Of a DNA stretch of 10,730 bases, positions 346 to 10,688 are shown one piece after another (positions within the stretch are counted from its first letter, which is position 1; the number at the start of each line of letters is the position of its first letter). Both the position numbers and the translations under genes were made by a program. A model generated the notes under the pieces. The model saw nothing but the letters and a program-made list of their open reading frames with translations. It did not search any database and had not been told where the DNA came from. Location of the stretch: UHGV virus genome UHGV-0119078; one strand, 5' to 3'. Source of the DNA: a virus.

Positions 346-462
346 CAGTTGGTCACACAGAATAACTATCAAGCTGCTTAACAGTTTCTTACGTGAAAGT
401 TATTTCTGAGGGTGGGTAAGTGTTCAGGAGATTTTGCGTAGGACACGCTTAGAGAGTGGATA

Positions 463-488
463 CAAAAAAGCCCCCATGAAGGAGGCTA
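463..488 (-). terminator. Rho-independent terminator candidate for the small serine recombinase gene
   Basis: On the minus strand: stem AGCCUCC / GGGGGCU (7 bp, one G-U pair), loop UUCAU, followed by U6 (plus-strand A6 at 464..469). Confidence 0.45.
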
Positions 489-513
489 TGAAGATGCTAC
501 TAAGTTTTTTTTT

Positions 514-1089
514 TTACAGTGTCTTTGTCCAGTGACGGCTAACCGTTCTTACAGAGAGATTCAGAAGCTTTGCAACCTGACTTTGTGACAATCCCTTTGC
601 CTTATGCTCTAAAACGGCCTCTGTAGTGTTCACAGCTACAGGACGACCCAACACCTTACCTTGTGCTTTAACACGCTGTAGACCCTGCTTAGTACGCTCT
701 CTGATGCGGTTACGTTCGAACTCTGCAAAAGCCCCGAACATTTGAAGCATCATTCTACCTTCTGGCTTGGATAAGTCCTGTATGGGCAAGTCTAAGCAAA
801 TTAGCTTAATCCCTTTTGCAATGAGCATATCAACCGTTTTCTGTAGGTCGATACAATCACGTCCTAAACGGTCAAGCTTGAGAACCACCAGCGTATCACC
901 AGCCTCTAGTTTATGTGTGACCAAGTTAGAGAACTCTTTACGCTCCATAGCAGCCACTGAACCGGATACTACTTCTTCTATGATTCGTGTCTTAGGGATT
1001 GTGTAACCTGCATTCTTGATGGCTTCAATCTGGTTCTCATTGGTGGAGTCATCAACTGATACACGACAGTAAGCAAAGATGCGTGACAT
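514..1089 (-). CDS. Small serine recombinase, resolvase/invertase family (Hin/Gin/TnpR-like)
   Basis: 191-aa ORF; N-terminal catalytic block YCRVS, conserved GDTLVVLKLDRLGRD and ERTKQGLQRVKAQGKVLGRP blocks closely resembling Hin/Gin and Tn3-type resolvases; C-terminal HTH-like region; SD-like AAGGGA upstream of the ATG. Confidence 0.85.
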   Translation of the reverse strand: MSRIFAYCRVSVDDSTNENQIEAIKNAGYTIPKTRIIEEVVSGSVAAMERKEFSNLVTHKLEAGDTLVVLKLDRLGRDCIDLQKTVDMLIAKGIKLICLDLPIQDLSKPEGRMMLQMFGAFAEFERNRIRERTKQGLQRVKAQGKVLGRPVAVNTTEAVLEHKAKGLSQSQVAKLLNLSVRTVSRHWTKTL

Positions 1090-1096
1090 GTTCTAT

Positions 1097-1200
1097 CCCT
1101 TCTATATAGCCAACAAAGGCCTGTCTTGCTTGTCTATAGCCATTAAATCAATTATCACAATTGTTGTCTATAGCTACAGCTACCTTTTTATATAGACACT
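1097..1200. promoter_or_regulatory. Cluster of TGTCTATAGC-type motifs in both orientations immediately upstream of the small recombinase gene (candidate res-like/accessory binding region and promoter)
   Basis: TCTATATAGCC 1101..1111, TGTCTATAGCC 1131..1141, TGTCTATAGCT 1165..1175, inverted TATATAGACA 1190..1199; 1165..1199 forms an imperfect 35-bp palindrome (TGTCTATA ... TATAGACA). Confidence 0.4.
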
Positions 1201-1544
1201 TAACGGGCGTTTGTTGTCATGTGTATTTATACAGTTAAAGACCTCGATAGATGCCTTTATAGCAACTCACAGAGAAAGTCAATGATATTTGGCTTTTTTG
1301 CAAAGGGGGTCACATAGCTGGTGTGACGGGTACTTAGCAGACATACAGATATTTTCGAAGATTCGGGGAAGATGAGATTCAAAGAGGGCTAGTCATTTTT
1401 TATAAAAATTTTCAGAGACTGAAAAGTTACTGTACAGATTTTGCACAATCTTACCAAGCCTCATAGTTGATTCGATTAGAAGCTAATCTCATAGAAAGCT
1501 CTGTAGCGAGTTTTAACCCCATTTTTAGGGGTAACCTATAGGGA

Positions 1545-1641
1545 TGTACTAACCACCTTAAAATAAAGGGGTAAAATCGCTTAGAATGCGTTACAGAGCG
1601 TCTGAGAAGCCATATTCACAGATTTTACTAAAGTCTCAGAC
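1545..1641. repeat. Left arm of about 97-bp imperfect inverted repeat (pairs with 4417..4513)
   Basis: Ungapped alignment of 1545..1641 with the reverse complement of 4417..4513 gives about 69% identity, with core blocks 27/31 (1581..1611 vs 4447..4477) and 12/13 (1629..1641 vs 4417..4429); both arms begin with TGT at the outer end. Confidence 0.7.
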
Positions 1642-1661
1642 TTCTAAGTGGTCTTTTTAAC

Positions 1662-1710
1662 AGGAGGGGTTCCCCTATGGTCACATATCCCCTCTCTCTC
1701 CCGCTTAGTG
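1662..1710 (+). repeat. Copy 1 of a three-member motif family: G-rich hairpin followed by TCTCCCGCTTAGTG
   Basis: AGGAGGGGTTCCCCT hairpin then GGTCACAT then TCTCCCGCTTAGTG (1697..1710, identical 14-mer also at 2371..2384). Confidence 0.5.
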
Positions 1711-2114
1711 TCCCTTGATAGTATCTAGAGAGTATGCCTGTAAAACTTCTATATCAGGTCAGATTTAGAGGGTTTGATAGAATCTTCAAAGGTACTTGAC
1801 AGATAACTATGAAGTTGCCAGGAAGGAGTGTTTAACGGGAGGAAAGATACGATATAACCCGAAGGGGAGAGTATCATCTTAACAATTATCTTAAGAATAA
1901 AAACTGAAAAATTCTTAACAGAACTACCAAGAGGGAGCGATAAGACCAGAGGTAGTGACCTTGTTAAATAGGCCGTTTCAAAGCTCTTAAGAGTTTGTTA
2001 AGTAATGGCTATGTGAACAATCTTACCACTTTGTCAATGCTTTTGTCTTTGACCTAAATCAATAAAATGTATCGTTTGATGCACTTTTAAACAAAATAGC
2101 TAAAAAATCTTTTT

Positions 2115-2163
2115 AGAGGGGCGCTTCGCTTGGGGTCACTATGTTCTTTCTCTCCCGTTAAGA
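2115..2163 (+). repeat. Copy 2 (divergent) of the G-rich hairpin / TCTCTCCCG motif family
   Basis: AGAGGGGCGCTTCGCTTGGGGTCACT ... TTTCTCTCCCGTTAAG; shares GGGGTCAC and TCTCTCCCG with the copies at 1662 and 2338. Confidence 0.4.
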
Positions 2164-2337
2164 GGGAAGTTACAGGGACATTTCAAAGCCCTGATAAGGT
2201 AAGCCCGATGATAACAGAAACAGAGGGCAAAACCACTTATCAACACTGTGAACGAATAACGTAAAGGGCTGGTTAAGAAGGTCGGTTTAGGGATTGGTAG
2301 ATGATTCGGATGAAGCATCCTCATAACAATACCAATT

Positions 2338-2384
2338 AGAAGGGAGCTTCCCTTTCTTGGGTGTCGCTCTTCTCCCGCTTAGTG
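2338..2384 (+). repeat. Copy 3 of the G-rich hairpin / TCTCCCGCTTAGTG motif family
   Basis: AGAAGGGAGCTTCCCTTTC hairpin then TCTTCTCCCGCTTAGTG; 14-mer 2371..2384 identical to 1697..1710. Confidence 0.5.
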
Positions 2385-2413
2385 GATTGATTAAGAAGAC
2401 CTCTGAAGTTTCT

Positions 2414-2584
2414 CTGTGAAGGTGCTGGACAGCCTTATATATGGCTAATTACAACTTATTGAAAAATAAGAACTTTTAGAAGTTACTGTTAAGGTTACGG
2501 AGTTAACTGTGAAGAGACTTGTCAGTTCTCTATATATGGCTAATTACAACTTATTGAAAAATAAGAACTTTTAGAAGTTACTGT
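2414..2584 (+). repeat. Tandem direct repeat, two units (2414..2489 and 2507..2584) with a perfect 54-bp core (2436..2489 = 2531..2584)
   Basis: Core TATATATGGCTAATTACAACTTATTGAAAAATAAGAACTTTTAGAAGTTACTGT is identical in both units; each core holds a 6-bp stem with GAAA tetraloop (CTTATT-GAAA-AATAAG) and an adjacent 5-bp hairpin (AACTT-TTAG-AAGTT); units share CTGTGAAG upstream with a divergent linker. Confidence 0.75.
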
Positions 2585-2684
2585 CAGAGAGGTGAATACT
2601 TGATAGATACAGCTTTCCGGTTCTGTCAAGAGGTTTCACTACCCACCAGCTAAAAATATTTCAGAGGCGGGAGTGATGGGGGGG

Positions 2685-3105: not shown

Positions 3106-3663
3106 ATGAGAGACGCAGAATTTAGAGCGATGCTTCAGGCATCGAGACAACGTAACAAGCACAACTCCTACGCTTACACAAACTCCCCCACCAGCCACGA
3201 ATTACCCAAGTTTACCAAGAAAGAACGCAAAGGCATTGACGAAGTAATTCGGGCAATTACACCGAGGAACCGTTACATGCCAACACGCAAAACAACAAAG
3301 AACAGCATCAAGAATTATCTGGCTAGCTTTGACAGCTACGCGCAACTACCGAGCAAGCTTGATGATATTTTTATTGGATTTTGCAGAAGCGAGGGTCACC
3401 AGAAATACAACCAGAAGGTTTTTTATTTACTGCGAAGTCTTGATGAAATTAACTCAGCCACCGTGACAAATCATCTTCAGCGTCAAGCAACCAGACTTAG
3501 CCATGAATTACCAAGCGATAAATATTGCGCTTTGCTTGCTGTAATGTGCGCAAAGTTAATTGGTGTTGTTGAGCATCATATTGCCGTTGGAAATATTGAG
3601 CCAATGGAAAACGAGCAACCAGATTTCGAGTTTGACCCGTATTTAGTTACAGAGGAATTTTAA
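3106..3663 (+). CDS. Hypothetical protein (185 aa), basic N-terminus, acidic C-terminal tail
   Basis: Intact ORF directly downstream of the predicted promoter; GAGGG SD-like sequence upstream; stop codon directly abuts the next ATG (TAAATG). No family recognised. Confidence 0.65.
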   Translation: MRDAEFRAMLQASRQRNKHNSYAYTNSPTSHELPKFTKKERKGIDEVIRAITPRNRYMPTRKTTKNSIKNYLASFDSYAQLPSKLDDIFIGFCRSEGHQKYNQKVFYLLRSLDEINSATVTNHLQRQATRLSHELPSDKYCALLAVMCAKLIGVVEHHIAVGNIEPMENEQPDFEFDPYLVTEEF

Positions 3664-3942
3664 ATGAAGAAACACACTTTGACCCGTATTTCAGAGGAAG
3701 CTTTTAACGAGCTTACCAGAATTAAACGAGCTACTAACTTGCCTCATCAAACTGTAATGCAGCTTGCAATTGCTAAAGAGGTCACTGAGTCGGATTTACT
3801 TAAATATCCAGTCTCTAAAGGTCGTAAGCACATCCGAATTACTCAGGACGCTTTAGATACTTTGAAGGCACTTAACGGCTTTAAGATTGATATTGCCCGA
3901 CTATTGAGCATCAAAATTAACAAGCTATCTCAAGAGGTCTGA
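3664..3942 (+). CDS. Hypothetical small protein (92 aa)
   Basis: ORF tightly packed between the upstream and downstream genes (2-nt gap to next ATG), consistent with an operon. No family recognised. Confidence 0.6.
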   Translation: MKKHTLTRISEEAFNELTRIKRATNLPHQTVMQLAIAKEVTESDLLKYPVSKGRKHIRITQDALDTLKALNGFKIDIARLLSIKINKLSQEV

Positions 3943-3944
3943 CT

Positions 3945-4217
3945 ATGAAGCAATGGCGAGATGATATTAAACGGTTCTTTGCAACTTACTTCATGATTAA
4001 TTACGAAACAGGAATGCTTGAATGGATTGATGGTGGAGAGGTTAAGACAAGAGATGACGCTTACGGTAATCCAATGATTCGTTATGGCACTCGTGATTAT
4101 TATGTGAAATATGTCATCTGGTTTTTGCATCATGAAGTTCAGGCAACTAAAAAAATTATCTTCAGGGATGGTAATAAAAGAAATTGCCACCCAAACAATT
4201 TACTACTGGAGATTTAA
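3945..4217 (+). CDS. HNH-like small protein (HNH_3-type fold), probably degenerate at the catalytic histidine
   Basis: 90-aa ORF with NYETGMLEW (matches the Y-x-ETG-x-x-x-W N-terminal signature of phage HNH_3 proteins) and a C-terminal IIFRDGNKRNCHPNNLLL block aligning with the IDHxDGN...N..NL HNH core, but with Phe/Arg where the catalytic His is expected. Confidence 0.5.
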   Translation: MKQWRDDIKRFFATYFMINYETGMLEWIDGGEVKTRDDAYGNPMIRYGTRDYYVKYVIWFLHHEVQATKKIIFRDGNKRNCHPNNLLLEI

Positions 4218-4417
4218 TGCTATGTATTAAATTCGAATATTTGACAGATAAAATGATTAAGCATGTATCAGACCTGCTCATCAAAGAAGGTGGTTTCGGT
4301 GATGCTTGCAATCCAAAAGATATCTTCATTCATGCCACCAGCCCAAACGCAACACTAAAGACAGCAGTTACAGCGGAATGGTTTGAACGAAATAAAGCGG
4401 AATTAGGTTATTGGTAG
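4217..4417 (+). CDS. Hypothetical small protein (66 aa), translationally coupled to the HNH-like gene
   Basis: ATG at 4217 overlaps the upstream TAA stop (TAATG); GGAG 5 nt upstream. The longer ORF-track start at 4184 lacks an RBS. No family recognised. Confidence 0.45.
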   Translation: MLCIKFEYLTDKMIKHVSDLLIKEGGFGDACNPKDIFIHATSPNATLKTAVTAEWFERNKAELGYW

Positions 4418-4513
4418 TCCGAGACTTTAAGAGAAATTAGAAAAACAGCTTCTCAGACGCTCTCAATCGCATTCTAACGCAAAAAACTACCTTATTTTAG
4501 GGTGGGTAACACA
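4417..4513. repeat. Right arm of about 97-bp imperfect inverted repeat (pairs with 1545..1641)
   Basis: See left arm; this arm starts at the stop codon of the 4217..4417 ORF and ends about 40 bp before the 4553 promoter. Confidence 0.7.
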
Positions 4514-4552
4514 GTAAATAAGAATTGATGTTACCAATCTGTTAAAAAGCTG

Positions 4553-4922: not shown

Positions 4923-5633
4923 ATGACAAACGATATTTACATTAACGGTAAAAAGATTGATAGCTTCGGTGACTGGTCGCCACAGACTGAACATCCAGCT
5001 ATCACTATTCAGCGTAAAGAACACGATGAAAGAATTAAGCTTGAGCAATCGTTAAAGATGTCACCAAAGGTAATTTCCTTTGTGTCTCCTGAGCCTCAAG
5101 AAATGCCAGATATCTGCAAAAGTGAAGCACTATTTAATCTTGAGCGTGAATACTACCCACAGTTAAAAGAACAGCGTATTCGACTTGATGACGCTTACAG
5201 CAAAGTTACCCTGATGCAATCAGCTATTGAGCCATCAGAATTTGAGATTCAGGATGAATTGTCACAGAAACCATTTGTCTATTACCAATATGAAGACAAT
5301 GATGGTTTTGGTACTTTTCCTGAGAATATCCCAGACGTGATTAATAATCTTTCTGACGGATATCGAATTGTGAAGATGATTGGAGCTTCAAGAGGTGCTG
5401 GTCAGTTTATTTACATGACCAATAAGAGCGATGAAGAACTCCGTGAAATTGCCAGACAGAACATCTTAGCATCACGTAACAAGCAACTTGAAAATGTTAA
5501 GTTGTGTCTCTTAAGAGAGCTTCAGGCTATGAAAGACCTTATTTCTGCATATGAAACGCAGAAGAAGGTTGCTATGCAGGCTGATATTGAGCAGTTAGTG
5601 AAGATTTCTCAGAAATACGCAAAGGCACTTTGA
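4923..5633 (+). CDS. Hypothetical protein (236 aa) with predicted C-terminal coiled coil
   Basis: Intact ORF with AGAGGAA SD-like sequence; no family recognised by inspection. Confidence 0.65.
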   Translation: MTNDIYINGKKIDSFGDWSPQTEHPAITIQRKEHDERIKLEQSLKMSPKVISFVSPEPQEMPDICKSEALFNLEREYYPQLKEQRIRLDDAYSKVTLMQSAIEPSEFEIQDELSQKPFVYYQYEDNDGFGTFPENIPDVINNLSDGYRIVKMIGASRGAGQFIYMTNKSDEELREIARQNILASRNKQLENVKLCLLRELQAMKDLISAYETQKKVAMQADIEQLVKISQKYAKAL

Positions 5634-5980: not shown

Positions 5981-8107
5981 ATGAGCAAATTCACAGTTGA
6001 TAGTTTTATCGTTGAGTTAGGCTTCAGCGAGAACGTTATTAAGGGCTTGCAAAGAGTTGAAAAAGCAGCTTTGCAGTCAGCACAAAGAATTGAAAAGAAC
6101 CTAAATAAAGGCTTCAAGATTAATACAAAGCAACTTGACAGTAATCTGACAAGTTCTTTGAAGTCAATGGAAGGGAAAATTAATAAGACCTTTGACCGTC
6201 TGGAAGCTAGAGCAAGAAATACTAGAGTTTTCCGTTTCACAAGTCAGGTTAATGACGTTATTAATCCGCCAAAACAACCGAGGCCAAGAAGAGTTACTAG
6301 TGACCGAGCTATTACAGCGGCTTATTCAGCGAATATGACTAAGCTGAAAGGTCTTAACCCAATTGTCGAGAAATACATTAAGAGTCAGTTTTACGCATTA
6401 AGTAGTAAAGCTGGTCAGATGGATAACACCAAGTTTAATGAAGCCCTTGCTAAACTAAATTCAAGTGTACGAGAAGCAATTGCTAAAGCCAGAGGTCATA
6501 CATCCACCAGCATTAACGGTGACAGAGCAGCTAATAGTCTTGATAGTTTGAGTTCAGCAGCAGTTAAAACAGCAGGTGCATTTATCAGCTTTCAGGCTGT
6601 ACTATCCGCTTATCAGAAGATTATGGAAGTTGGCCTTCAACGTGCATCATCGGAAAGAAGTATTGATTTCGTATTCGGTGACCAAAGTACACAGGTCAAA
6701 AAGTTCATTCAAGATTTAACTCAAATTACTGGTATGGACACAACCGAAACACAAGCACAGTTTGCTTCATTTGGTGCATCTGCAAAAAATACGATGGGTC
6801 TTGAAGGCTCAGAGGAATTATTTAAAAACTTAACTGGATATGCCCGTTTAATGGGTCGTTCAGATGAGCAGATTCAAAGAGCATTAACCGCAGTATCGCA
6901 GATGGCTTCTAAGGGTCAGGTGATGGCTGAAGAGCTTAAGGGGCAACTATCTGAAGCTTTACCGGGTGCTACTCAGGCATTTGCAAAGGCTTTAGGTCTG
7001 ACTGAAAAACAGCTTTTCGATAAGATGAAAAATGGTGATGTTAAAGCCTCTGATGCACTCCCTAAGTTTGCTAAAGAACTTGGTTCACAGATTAATTCCA
7101 GAGGTGGCTGGAAAGCTATTCAGGACTCTACGCAGACGATGTTAGGGAACTTAAAGAATACTTGGAACAACTCACTAACGGATATCTTCAGAGGTTCTGA
7201 AAATGGTCTTCAAGATTTCACAAGAAGCTTAACCAATCTTTTAAATAGTCTTGGTGGGAGTGGTAAAACATTAGGTGAAAGTCTTGGTAATCTCATGACT
7301 TCTATGTCACACGGTGTCGATAACCTGACTGATATTAGTTACAGGGTAAGGGCGTTCTTTGACGAGGTGACATTGGCTTATCGTTCACTAAATGACACTC
7401 AGAAAAAAATTGTTGATGGCCTATCTGATGGGTTAATTGATGGTTTGAAGATGCTTGCTGTAGCTGTTACTGCTCAAAAGGCTGCAAATGTAGCTGGAGG
7501 CTTGTTAAACCTTGCAAATGCTGTTACTTCATTCGGTGACGCTGTTAATAAAGCTAAAGCTGGCAAGGCTGGTTCTTCAGGTGGTGCGCTAAATAAAGTT
7601 GGTAGAGTTGTTCTTTATGCTGAGTTGGTGAACTTTGCTCTTGATAATTTAAACCCTGAAGCGGCTAAGAATCCGAACTTACACCAATCAGGTATTGGAA
7701 CAGAGACAAACTTCAACCCTGAATACAAAGGCGATTCATCTAAACCAAACCAAATTAATGATGGATGGGCTAAGATTGGTGGTTCTATCGCTGACTGGTT
7801 TAATGGTGCAGCTAATAAAATTGCTAACTTCCAAGAACCGATGAATAACTTCGTAAATAACACACAATCAACTCCACCAGCTATCGACACGGTTAATAGC
7901 AATGCTCAATTAGCTATGGCTGTATCAGAGTTAGGAAGAAAGGTAGACGCTTTAACAGCAGAAACTAAGAAGCCCTTGTCACTTAATATCAAAGGTGAAG
8001 CAATTGTTAGGCCGGATGAACCATCTTTCTTTATTTTCAATCAATCGGCTAATGACCAGTTCACGCAGGATATGCTCTTAAGTTCAAGCTATCCAGAAGA
8101 AGAATGA
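5981..8107 (+). CDS. Tape-measure-protein-like protein (708 aa)
   Basis: Central block GQVMAEELKGQLSEALPGATQAFAKALGLTEKQLFDKMKNGDVKASDALPKFAKELG resembles the conserved core of phage tail tape measure proteins (recalled from memory, not searched); alpha-helical, Ala/Gly/Ser/Asn-rich, low-complexity C-terminal part; AAGAGGTGA SD. Coding confidence is high; the functional call is moderate. Confidence 0.55.
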   Translation: MSKFTVDSFIVELGFSENVIKGLQRVEKAALQSAQRIEKNLNKGFKINTKQLDSNLTSSLKSMEGKINKTFDRLEARARNTRVFRFTSQVNDVINPPKQPRPRRVTSDRAITAAYSANMTKLKGLNPIVEKYIKSQFYALSSKAGQMDNTKFNEALAKLNSSVREAIAKARGHTSTSINGDRAANSLDSLSSAAVKTAGAFISFQAVLSAYQKIMEVGLQRASSERSIDFVFGDQSTQVKKFIQDLTQITGMDTTETQAQFASFGASAKNTMGLEGSEELFKNLTGYARLMGRSDEQIQRALTAVSQMASKGQVMAEELKGQLSEALPGATQAFAKALGLTEKQLFDKMKNGDVKASDALPKFAKELGSQINSRGGWKAIQDSTQTMLGNLKNTWNNSLTDIFRGSENGLQDFTRSLTNLLNSLGGSGKTLGESLGNLMTSMSHGVDNLTDISYRVRAFFDEVTLAYRSLNDTQKKIVDGLSDGLIDGLKMLAVAVTAQKAANVAGGLLNLANAVTSFGDAVNKAKAGKAGSSGGALNKVGRVVLYAELVNFALDNLNPEAAKNPNLHQSGIGTETNFNPEYKGDSSKPNQINDGWAKIGGSIADWFNGAANKIANFQEPMNNFVNNTQSTPPAIDTVNSNAQLAMAVSELGRKVDALTAETKKPLSLNIKGEAIVRPDEPSFFIFNQSANDQFTQDMLLSSSYPEEE

Positions 8108-8263
8108 TTTAACGGTGTTCTACGTGAATAAAGCAAAGTTAATACCCGCACTGAAAAATAATTTTTACGTAGCTCACGCTTAACAGAGAAAATACTTATA
8201 TATCAAAGGCTTGGTTAAAAATGATTAAAATACACTAAGCCTTTGAAATCAAAGGAGAATTTA

Positions 8264-9034
8264 ATGATTTTTAGCAATCAAATCCGCTACAGTGGCAAAG
8301 ATGGCGTTTACTTCCACTTAAGAGATAATGTAGATGCCTTCTTAACCTTATCAGCAACTGAACAGATGGAATATGACAGCCCTATGATGGTGACAACTCA
8401 GGCTATGCAATCGGGGCAAACTATAACTGATAATGTTCAGAGAGCACCTAAGACCATCTCTATTAGCGGTGTTGTAGTGGTTGATTCGACGGGTTCAGTT
8501 CTATTAACCAGACAGGGGCAACTTGTAGAAACCTTTATTTCTACGGTTGAACAATGGCGAGACCAGAAGCAAATCATCACTATTGTTTGTAAAGATGGAA
8601 TATCTATCACTGATAGTATCATTACTCAGTTTAAAGCGAGTAAAGAGCATACCATTGCTAATGGTCTTCGTATTCAGATGACCTTCCAAGGTGTAGAATT
8701 TCGTTCAATCGTAGGTCAAACTGATATTTCAGCAGCAACTGGAAAGACCGCTACCACGAATGATGGCGGTTCTACCAGTAAAAAGAACACTGGCAACACT
8801 ACAACGAGTCTTGGAAGCCCTATGCTGACCTGTAAAGAGCTTTTTAGCTATTCGGCAAGTGAGTTATCAGATGAAGCGCTAAAAGCCCGTGTAACGTGCT
8901 CTAAGAGCGTTAGCGTTAAAAATGGTGAGAGCACCTTCACAGCCTCAGCTAATGAGCAAGCTTCAAAGGTGCTTAAGTCGGGTAATGCTTTACGGAAGTT
9001 TTCTGTAAATCCGAACAAGAAGGGCACTTATTGA
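8264..9034 (+). CDS. Hypothetical protein (257 aa from ATG 8264), possibly tail-associated given its position after the tape-measure-like gene
   Basis: AAAGGAG SD 6 nt upstream of ATG 8264 (the ORF-track TTG start at 8243 has no RBS); Ser/Thr/Gly-rich central linker. No family recognised. Confidence 0.55.
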
Positions 9035-9066: not shown

Positions 9067-10587
9067 TTACAGTTGATAAGCGTCTATTTCTAGTAGCTCT
9101 TTTTCAGCAATTTCAAATATTGATGTTCCATCATTTAGCGGTAACGGGTTTGTAGGTATGGTGATTTCAGTGTCGTTCTGTAGCGTTACAATTACCGAAT
9201 CCTTACCCAATGTAAGCCCTTTTAGATGTTTGGACAAAATCAACTGACACTCGACACGACCCGCTTTAGTTGTCAGGTCAATATCTTTAAGCTGGGGTAG
9301 TTCCTTATCAGTGAGTGAAGCCTTACGCCTCATGTTATCAATCGTGGTCTGTAGCTCTGTACGCCTCTGGTTCAGTTCCTTAATCTGAATTTTTAGTTCA
9401 TCAATATCATCCATCTCAAGAAGTAGGGCGGTAGCTTTCTTGATTCTGGTTGTGACAATTTCAACCTCATGCTGTAGAGATGCAATCTTCCCCTCTGCTT
9501 CTCCATCATTCCCCACGTCAATCATTCCTAGAAAATTTTCAAGCATCCACTTATCAAACGGTTTACGCTTCAACGGAGGAACATCACAGCGACCATCAAG
9601 ATGGTTATTGCACCGATAAACGCCCTGATACTTATTCTTAGTCCCTGTAGGGTGAACACTAGCCCCGCACTGACACCTAAACAGACCTTTGAAGATGTTA
9701 ATCGTTAATGGATTATCACTTGCAGGTGTACGGCCTATACGGTTCTTACCAAGAATCTCTTGAGCTTTATTGAACGTTGAAGCATCTATAGCGGCTTCGT
9801 AGTAGTTCGGTATAGCGGGGCGGTCATTACGTTGTGATGCTGGTAACGTGCCTATCGTTGTCTCTGACCTTAAGATGGTGCGTACAGAGTGAACACTAAA
9901 CCCGTTAGCATCTTTACGGCGACTAAACGACTTTATACCGTTGCTTTGAAGGTGACGGGCGATGTTATGCAGACTTTCACCACTTAGCAGCAGCTTGAAA
10001 ATCAGTCTTACAGTCTCAGCGTGTTCATTGAGTTTAAAAGTATCGGGGTCAATCCATCCGGGAACCATCTTTGTTAAACGTTGTTCACCAGCAAGGGCAA
10101 GTTTTGCACGTTGCTCCCATTTCTGAGAAACACGGAAAGACTTCTGCTTAGATTCCTGATGCGCTATGTAGGCTTTGACACGCTGGATGATTGAGATTCC
10201 TAAATCATCGGCTAAAGCATCCTTTGTGTAGATAAGACCATCTTGTAGCGTGTGAATCTCTAACCCGTTGCCTAAGATGCGATTCATCAAGGCTTCTGTT
10301 TCAAGGTGTTCTAAGCGGCCTATACGGTCGATACTCTCAACAAGCAAAATCGTACCTTCTGGAAACTCCCCAGACTCAATACGGGCTAACATGTCACCAA
10401 ACTGACCAGTAAGATGCTTACCTTTGTAACCGGATAGACCTTCATCACTGAAAGACGCTACTACTTGAGCATCGCTATTCTTCTTCAGCCACTGCTTGAA
10501 CAGGTCGTTTTGTCGTCTGGTTGAATCTGCACCTTCAGCGCCTTGTATGGCTGATGAGAATCTCAAGTATGTTATTACGGTTCTCAC
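9067..10587 (-). CDS. Large serine recombinase (phage-type serine integrase)
   Basis: 506-aa ORF; N-terminal resolvase-type catalytic domain (YLRFSSAIQ, LLVESIDRIGR), extended recombinase domain, Cys-rich zinc-ribbon-like motif (CQCGASVHP ... YRCNNHLDGRCD) and C-terminal coiled coil (KIQIKELNQRRTELQTTIDNMRRK); start codon appears to be GTG (plus-strand CAC at 10585..10587) with GGAG upstream. Confidence 0.85.
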   Translation of the reverse strand: MRTVITYLRFSSAIQGAEGADSTRRQNDLFKQWLKKNSDAQVVASFSDEGLSGYKGKHLTGQFGDMLARIESGEFPEGTILLVESIDRIGRLEHLETEALMNRILGNGLEIHTLQDGLIYTKDALADDLGISIIQRVKAYIAHQESKQKSFRVSQKWEQRAKLALAGEQRLTKMVPGWIDPDTFKLNEHAETVRLIFKLLLSGESLHNIARHLQSNGIKSFSRRKDANGFSVHSVRTILRSETTIGTLPASQRNDRPAIPNYYEAAIDASTFNKAQEILGKNRIGRTPASDNPLTINIFKGLFRCQCGASVHPTGTKNKYQGVYRCNNHLDGRCDVPPLKRKPFDKWMLENFLGMIDVGNDGEAEGKIASLQHEVEIVTTRIKKATALLLEMDDIDELKIQIKELNQRRTELQTTIDNMRRKASLTDKELPQLKDIDLTTKAGRVECQLILSKHLKGLTLGKDSVIVTLQNDTEITIPTNPLPLNDGTSIFEIAEKELLEIDAYQL

Positions 10588-10675: not shown

Positions 10676-10688
10676 CAATGACCCTTGA
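10676..10688. repeat. Right copy of 13-bp perfect direct repeat CAATGACCCTTGA (candidate attR core)
   Basis: Identical to 43..55; lies about 90 bp outside the integrase start. Confidence 0.45.

Follow-up and report, generated by a model that had tools for sequence, protein, structure and literature searches.

What might a motif do that recurs three times, in a single orientation, in DNA that encodes no gene? The question is raised by UHGV virus genome UHGV-0119078, a stretch of 10,730 nucleotides (hereafter the window), in which an earlier note described three dispersed copies of a composite motif, a G-rich hairpin followed by GGTCAC and a 14-mer, within a gene-free region. These copies belong to three related modules of ~60 nt, named A, B, and C, which keep their position, order, and orientation among homologous elements and resemble functional signals of a phage parasite not described before rather than noise. 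The island that carries them appears to live as a satellite of Felixounavirus, a group of virulent Felix O1-like phages, and the reading tentatively preferred here, though held at less than even confidence, is that the modules may be cis-acting DNA repeats in a packaging or replication region that mimics that of the helper phage.

Three related modules in the gene-free region

The 14-mer TCTCCCGCTTAGTG is exact at 1697-1710 and 2371-2384, and a diverged copy, TCTCCCGTTAAGA, lies at 2151-2163, just where the earlier note had placed them. With up to three mismatches allowed, the window contains 4 matches against 0.63 expected, a number reached by 3 of 200 shuffles. The remaining parts of the proposed composite are less uniform. 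The GGTCAC-like element said to precede each copy is found in front of the first two by position (1679-1684 and 2134-2139), but the third has only GGGTGTCGC, a weak likeness; likewise, a GGGG/CCCC-type hairpin was described before every copy, but GGGGTTCCCC (1666-1675) alone is strictly of this type, and GGCGCTTCGCT (2120-2130) and AGGGAGCTTCCCT (2341-2353) are not.

The 14-mer copies are the 3' cores of the three modules, all of which lie on the + strand (Table 1). The module consensus runs from T(T/A)A(G/C) through a purine run ending in GCTTC and ~20 variable nt, often with GGTCAC, to CTCTYCTCCCG-YT(T/A)AG, and what is conserved in it is a pair of sequence blocks, not a helix. When profiles derived from a single slot in other loci were searched against the window, they returned the other two window modules as the best non-self matches, on the + strand, with E values of 3.5e-4 to 0.41, only some of which are individually significant. 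The A-profile recovered B near full length (E=3.5e-4) and C in its 3' part only (E=0.16), the B-profile recovered both A (E=0.11) and C (E=0.41) near full length, and the C-profile recovered B near full length (E=0.042) and A in its 3' part only (E=0.19).

Of 5426 complete E. coli genomes, 567 contain the gene-free region (77-88% identity), which nearly always lacks annotation, including in thousands of RefSeq genomes; in relatives, the gene-free stretches measure 1.6-3 kb. Conservation was followed in 55 related loci (given L numbers below) from E. coli and E. albertii genomes, IMG/VR, and metagenome contigs. A lack of conservation in position or sequence among relatives had been set beforehand as the observation that could refute the motif, and co-oriented modules were found in 55 of 55 loci with their order kept, so that the recurring modular motif stands. 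There are usually three modules, rarely 1, 2, or 4, and the usual layout is A-(~455 nt)-B-(~173-223 nt)-C. Module A occupies slot 1 in 46 loci, the nine others being eight two-module arrays that begin with B together with L046, and module B is almost invariant (15 islands). An A-like core in slot 3 of five loci suggests gene conversion, and because cores have been exchanged from slot to slot the copies may be interchangeable. Two further rearrangements are a fusion of the 5' part of B with the 3' part of C (L028) and a duplicated A (L003).

Shared sequence with the Felixounavirus genome ends

The gene-free region shares sequence with the genome-end region of Felixounavirus. The reference was phage UAB_69 (whole 87-kb genome), for which the annotation in OL656108 places the direct terminal repeat (DTR) at 14626-15243; in UAB_Phi87, experiment has shown the repeat to measure 608 bp (PMC4837284). 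Against the whole phage, just two non-coding blocks of the window, 1271-1347 and 1390-1430, match significantly; they straddle the right end of the DTR, and the shared boundary blocks are seen in a multiple alignment of 3 phages and 13 islands. The boundary falls between GGGCTACCAA and GCAGATATACA in the phage and between GGGTACTTA and GCAGACATACA, at about 1335/1336, in the window. The boundary homolog contains GGGGGTCACATAG, which the earlier note had counted among the motif's relatives together with a GTCACA-N7-TGTGAC palindrome. Both sequences are present, but GGGGGTCACATAG lies at 1305-1317 and not at 1307-1319, with the palindrome at 1309-1327. No module profile matches there, and the element is not a fourth module; it is part of the terminal-repeat boundary homolog, in which homology runs across the mapped end of the repeat. 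A match weaker than that of the boundary relates 1932-1967 to the DTR interior (phage 14903-14938, 83% over 36 nt, E=1e-5 for a 1.8-kb subject), and the DTR-internal patch in other islands gives E=4e-7 to 2e-5.

To the right of the boundary, both genomes are rich in an 8-mer box, TWAGARGK. Between 1337 and 2684 the box occurs 7 times on the + strand and once on the minus strand (5.2 per kb versus 0.12 per kb in the rest of the window), and in the right flank of the phage DTR it occurs 6 times on the + strand and never on the minus strand (10.1 per kb versus 0.26 in the rest of the genome). The box is ~40-fold enriched in island and phage, and the observed count was reached by 0 of 2000 simulations in either case. 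Modules B and C open with a TWAGARGK box and B also closes with one, the box at both ends of B having the form TWAGARGG. The island and the DTR region are alike in the right boundary, the homologous flank, and the same-side, strand-specific enrichment of the box, whereas the ~60-bp modules are not in the phage, and the TTAACR boxes that crowd the interior of the DTR (13 on one strand) are only mildly enriched in the island.

Further links concern the whole island. Its tape-measure and baseplate genes show ~76% nucleotide identity to Felixounavirus. GATC sites number 0 in the island against 38.6 expected, with normal chromosomal flanks, and are likewise absent from a second island (L002 3050-14700), from the circular contig L040, and from the 87-kb phage UAB_69 (306 expected); the absence of GATC has been published for Felixounavirus VpaE1 (PMC4690856). 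The two ends of contig L040 (ERZ506742 NODE-633, 11,233 bp, from a metagenome) are identical over 55 nt, and the contig represents a related island in circularly permuted form, with the integrase end joined to the left end. Because it is circularly permuted without chromosomal flank, it implies an excised, concatemeric, or packaged form. The Felixounavirus-like genes, the circular contig, and the shared absence of GATC are the grounds on which the island is regarded as a probable satellite. Some relatives carry a Dam-like methyltransferase despite GATC avoidance.

The only blastn match of the gene-free region to phage records is a 49-nt hairpin, 94-100% identical to Felixounavirus NBEco004, NBEco005, and EC106, where it sits in a 1.2-1.7-kb gene-free stretch containing the DTR. 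It is an indel at T(T/A)AG, with a TTAG repeat, in islands as well as phages (L012 ~263-311; L013 ~2505-2553), thereby combining the presence/absence pattern and the terminal hairpin of REP/PATE-like mini-inserts, and looks like a tiny mobile insert swapped between phage and island. A second mini-hairpin, TAGTTGGGCTTGT(T/A)CCAACCCCTAT, occurs at 111-135 and 2914-2938, is an indel at several places beside TWAG, and stands inverted after module C in L006, L011, L018, and L019; a comparable GGTTGTTCCAACC hairpin, with GGGTCAC after it, is present in the phage.

The modules themselves could be functionless, accumulated mobile inserts of the same class as the 49-nt and ~26-nt hairpins at T(T/A)AG. 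They begin right after TTAG, TAAG, or TAAC and end in TTAG or TAAG; compared with phage EC106, module C resembles an insertion between CCA and CTTAGT; and the 49-nt and GTTGGGCTTGT..CCAACCCC hairpins are clear presence/absence inserts with TWAG repeats in islands and phages. However, flanking TWAGs are to be expected because TWAG is so common in the gene-free region, and an empty site for A, B, or C was found in none of the 55 loci, where a missing A reflects the replacement of a larger block. The fixed order, spacing, and orientation are unlike those of scattered inserts, the near invariance of B and the module folds (z near 0, see below) also speak against insertion, and searches of the island proteins found no hairpin-dependent transposase. 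An origin as mobile inserts is accordingly judged improbable.

Table 1. Positions of the modules and other features in the window
Feature	Position	Strand	Details
Module A (slot 1)	1654..1715	+	TTTTTAAC / AGGAGGGGTTCCCC TATGGTCAC ATAT CCCCTCTCTCTCCCGCTTAG / TG; nhmmer E=5e-14 to 8e-18
Module B (slot 2)	2109..2172	+	CTTTTTAG / AGGGGCGCTTCGCTTGGGGTCAC TATGTTCTTTCTCTCCCGTTAAG / AGGGAAG; nhmmer E=1.5e-19
Module C (slot 3)	2332..2390	+	AATTAG / AAGGGAGCTTCCCTTTCTTGGGTGTCGCTCTTCTCCCGCTTAG / TGGATTG; nhmmer E=1e-14 to 4e-19
Gene-free region housing the modules	1090..2684		no ORF of >=50 aa except one unconserved 61-aa ORF on the minus strand
DTR right-boundary homolog	1271..1347	+	blastn against whole UAB_69 E=1.2e-4; collinear with phage 15178-15254
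Homolog of phage sequence just outside the DTR	1390..1430	+	phage 15306-15346, 80% over 41 nt, E=1.2e-4
DTR-internal-related patch	1911..1967	.	includes the phage TTAACA-TGGTCAC-(CT-rich)-CTTAGTG element read on the minus strand
Seven TWAGARGK boxes	1765, 2113, 2159, 2274, 2336, 2476, 2571	+	
49-nt hairpin insert, GGATTGGTA...TACCAATTAG	2291..2339	+	directly upstream of module C; fold z=-2.4
Predicted sigma-70-like promoter, TTAAAA-N18-TAGAAT	1558..1587	+	reads towards module A; scan yields no more sites than shuffles
Two 95-bp tandem repeats	2405..2600	+	54 nt exact, 2436-2489 and 2531-2584
Small invertase-like serine recombinase	514-1089	minus	PHROG 'DNA invertase' E=2e-56
70-aa ORF	2685-2897	minus	
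Tape-measure protein, Felixounavirus-like	5981-8107		
Dit-like baseplate protein, Felixounavirus-like	8243-9034		
Large serine recombinase (integrase)	9067-10587		
ORF, open reading frame; aa, amino acids.

Candidate roles of the modules

Besides protein-binding sites, the earlier note had proposed that the motif recurs as a structural module within an RNA. The folds of the modules do not surpass those of dinucleotide shuffles (z from -0.56 to +0.91, + strand), their RNAalifold consensus is -1.43 kcal/mol, and the only shared helix, formed between a purine and a pyrimidine arm, shows the same degree of pairing after a slide of +2 (95.2% vs 95.2%), with covariation equal to that of slid controls. 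Rfam, tRNA, and tmRNA scans gave no match in the gene-free region. An RNA structural module is unsupported because Rfam has no match, the folds equal those of shuffles, and the helix equals slid controls. RNAalifold on the whole region proposed long-range pairs, which were rejected as unconvincing, their compensatory pairs coming from two haplotypes. The modules might still recur as parts of a long non-coding RNA that originates in the gene-free region, whose + strand is purine-rich with a positive GC skew from 1200 to 2800; all modules are co-oriented, a promoter is predicted upstream, and several local hairpins elsewhere in the region keep their pairing between the two main haplotypes. Against this stand the fold results just given, and compensatory changes drawn from two haplotypes represent few events and fit DNA palindromes equally well, leaving such an RNA quite improbable.

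A role in gene expression has more to be weighed. The modules could be co-oriented RNA- or translation-level leader cassettes, in which a Shine-Dalgarno (SD)-like purine run precedes a start codon by 9-12 nt and a CU-rich segment serves as anti-SD/stop, which is possible but rather unlikely. To much the same doubtful degree, such cassettes could mark present or former gene slots on a + transcript, from which recombination would remove or swap genes, leaving solo modules, in the manner of PeSLs, the composite promoter/stem-loop repeats of T4-like phages (PMC2839356, PMC4122927). The ORF of a Dam-like methyltransferase begins at a GTG within module B (GAGGGGCGCTTCGCTT GTG TCA C) in 11 of the 55 loci and is followed by a degenerate C-like module, so that the only optional gene has modules on both sides, and the fusion in L028 and the duplicated A in L003 show recombination at modules. 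An SD with a start codon is kept in 37/37 distinct sequences of A, 38/39 of B, and 21/40 of C, compared with 2-10% of shuffles, including AGGAGG-N9-ATG in all 37 distinct slot-1 sequences; this conservation is weak evidence because related sequences are not independent. Every copy lies on the + strand, the predicted promoter reads into A, and the early region of the helper repeats a unit of promoter, 5' hairpin, and SD between small genes.

Several observations do not fit leader cassettes. A conserved protein-coding ORF was sought in the gene-free region and the modules and none was found, the frames being broken by 4-nt indels; the mini-ORFs vary from 4 to 59 aa (7-59 aa in A) with the frame unconserved, and no gene or ORF follows A or C in any of the 55 loci. 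A promoter scan detected no sigma-70 promoter inside the three modules as delimited in Table 1, and no terminator-like site. The SD/anti-SD pairing equals slid controls, the helper early-leader profile does not match the modules, and the TWAGARGK boxes in the phage flank adjoin no gene. Homology of the modules to the helper early-gene leader (AACGGGGAGGGAATGACCTTCCCCACTAAGTAAA) had been considered from a likeness by eye and was rejected when the leader profile found nothing in the window.

Other transcription-related repeats occur in the islands and the phage. Units of ~100 nt at 1540-1642 (+) and about 4418-4520 (-) form an inverted pair with ~70% identity, each consisting of a TTAAAA/CTAAAA-N18-TAGAAT promoter-like site and then a GTCTGAGA...TCTCAGAC stem; the ~4418-4520 unit reads antisense into the end of the 3106-4417 operon and the 1540-1642 unit into module A. 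At the position of window ~1500-1650, L008-L011 carry, in place of this promoter-like unit, a ~70-nt block with almost no G on the + strand (CCACCCATACCTAACCAGACCC...) and G runs on the minus strand. Within 8229-13899 of phage UAB_69 (L017), a unit that combines a sigma-70 promoter with a 5' hairpin (GGGGAGGG AATGA CCTTCCCC), ACTAAGTAAA, and an SD recurs in six early intergenic regions; one copy has a compensatory stem change, and the unit resembles PeSL-type repeats in a non-T4 phage. Each 95-bp tandem repeat of the window contains a TTAGAAGT box, a CTGTGAAG...CAG inverted repeat, and a weak minus-strand promoter-like site; one repeat copy is absent in L009 and L021, and the 95-bp repeats in other islands are weakly related to the DTR-internal phage segment 15010-15071 (E=2e-5 to 7e-4).

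Cis-acting DNA repeats are preferred, leader cassettes come second, and mobile inserts, RNA modules, and recombinase sites (discussed below) trail. Under the preferred reading, the modules would act as DNA and be recognized by a protein in replication or packaging, and the putative protein-binding sites proposed in the earlier note are a plausible description of them. The gene-free region would be a patchwork copy of the gene-free genome-end region of the helper, with the boundary homolog at ~1336 and the run of TWAGARGK boxes on the side and strand where the phage has its own, and each module, with its 5' and 3' blocks around a variable ~20-bp middle, would be a satellite-specific elaboration on a TWAGARGK-type box. 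During helper infection, the excised island would use this region in cis, the helper terminase may cut and package the boundary homolog, and the modules would provide several copies of a site bound by a protein, encoded by helper or island, that loads the replication or packaging machinery; the Vibrio PLE satellites make comparable use of the repeats in their non-coding region.

A number of points weigh against cis-acting repeats. Sequence-level searches of Pfam, PHROGs, NCBIfam, and PDB revealed no signature of a replication initiator or terminase small subunit in the island proteins. The modules are long (60 bp) and show neither the dyad nor the short direct-repeat symmetry that iterons typically have, the distance between B and C can accommodate an inserted gene of ~700 bp, and the modules are absent from the helper genome, in which the best profile match has E=0.33. 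A homolog of the left DTR boundary is only weak and inconsistent, at window ~371-397. The methyltransferase start in B (11 loci) and the SD and start kept in A and B would fit an RNA or translation role at least as naturally, and the satellite behaviour of the island, namely its induction and packaging, is itself putative.

The island and comparable systems

The window represents an island of ~10.6 kb between yciI and tonB, bounded at 44-55 and 10677-10688 by the repeat AATGACCCTTGA, its attachment (att) core. It matches E. coli strain 2017.18.02CC at 100%, the sole difference being an IS5 in the tape-measure gene of that strain, and related islands occupy at least three chromosomal sites (yciI/tonB, ymdF/rutG, and yecN). 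A plasmid origin was rejected, with no plasmid match past the tonB flank. Besides the genes in Table 1, the island encodes several unknown proteins and an HNH endonuclease. A 236-aa protein (4923-5633) is called 'transposase' in many NCBI records, a name that looks unfounded, as searches of Pfam, PHROG, NCBIfam, and PDB sequences give it no support; for this protein and a 185-aa protein, no domain, solved relative, or phage homolog was found, and their homologs are shallow, all at >=89% identity. Window 403-1282 is a variable cargo slot between the conserved blocks 138-402 and ~1283 onward, flanked by a possible left-flank homolog and the DTR right-boundary homolog, and holds, depending on the island, the invertase (on either strand), a 221-aa unknown protein, an AP2-domain protein, or nothing.

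The invertase-like gene adjoins the gene-free region, and the modules could in principle be its res, inversion, or cassette sites. The distribution of the modules already largely refutes this: they are unchanged in L003, L004, L005, L006, and L065, which have no recombinase gene or carry other cargo, the copies are all direct, and the intervening DNA is never inverted in the 55 loci. The modules also contain no 12-bp dyad half-sites, and a role as recombinase sites is hardly credible. A comparison with integron attC sites, imperfect palindromes of the form RYYYAAC ... GTTRRRY that go with an IntI tyrosine recombinase, found, at best, TTTTAAC / GTTAAGA ends, in A and B only, and no tyrosine recombinase in the window.

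Among known systems, the closest in outline is the Vibrio cholerae PLE, a satellite of a virulent myovirus that, like the island on the present evidence, pairs satellite life with a large serine integrase, and whose 2.7-kb noncoding region (NCR) holds four repeat types, one of them, the RepA iteron, being a cis-acting site for replication (PMC7145576). Both the PLE NCR and the region studied here are kb-scale, gene-free, and endowed with several repeat families. However, the two share no sequence similarity, and the database searches listed above detected no RepA_N-type initiator in the island. In PLE, the iterons consist of direct repeats that are semi-palindromic, with inverted sub-repeats that converge towards a poly-A tract, whereas the island modules are ~60 bp long and 170-480 bp apart, and neither inverted sub-repeats nor a poly-A centre is seen in the module alignment. 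The copying of a helper terminal-repeat boundary, on the other hand, is not described for PLE.

PeSLs and the modules are both short composite intergenic repeats that are co-oriented with transcription; a further likeness, flanking an optional gene and coinciding with insertion, deletion, or hybrid breakpoints, holds for the methyltransferase and for the hybrid and duplicated modules, although an ORF never follows A or C. In contrast to PeSLs, the modules contain no internal sigma-70 promoter, stable stem-loop, or terminator, and with a single optional gene the A-B-C array is otherwise fixed and not hyperplastic. Membership in either the PLE-type NCR and its iterons or the PeSLs thus fails on defining features. 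A further parallel is the ori/crr of satellite P4, where dispersed short octamer iterons are bound by the alpha protein; the likeness lies in repeated sites for one protein at separate positions of a satellite genome, whereas the island encodes no alpha-like primase-helicase.

It is conceivable, though put somewhat below an even chance, that the island belongs to an undescribed satellite family, carried by ~10% of complete E. coli genomes, that copies the terminal-repeat boundary and flank of its helper for packaging and uses the modules as recognition sites of its own to hijack helper replication or packaging. A literature search found no paper on satellites of Felix O1-like phages. Phages of this group are widely used in the typing of Salmonella and E. 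coli, in biocontrol, and in therapy. If the proposal is true, the modules would be a new family of cis-acting signals through which an island common in E. coli takes advantage of Felix O1-like phages, and such islands could block these phages or spread on them. The island would then offer a tractable E. coli counterpart of the Vibrio PLE-ICP1 system, as well as a pointer to the packaging and replication signals of Felixounavirus itself, among them the boundary of the terminal repeat, the boxes TWAGARGK and TTAACR, and the total avoidance of GATC that phage and island have in common.

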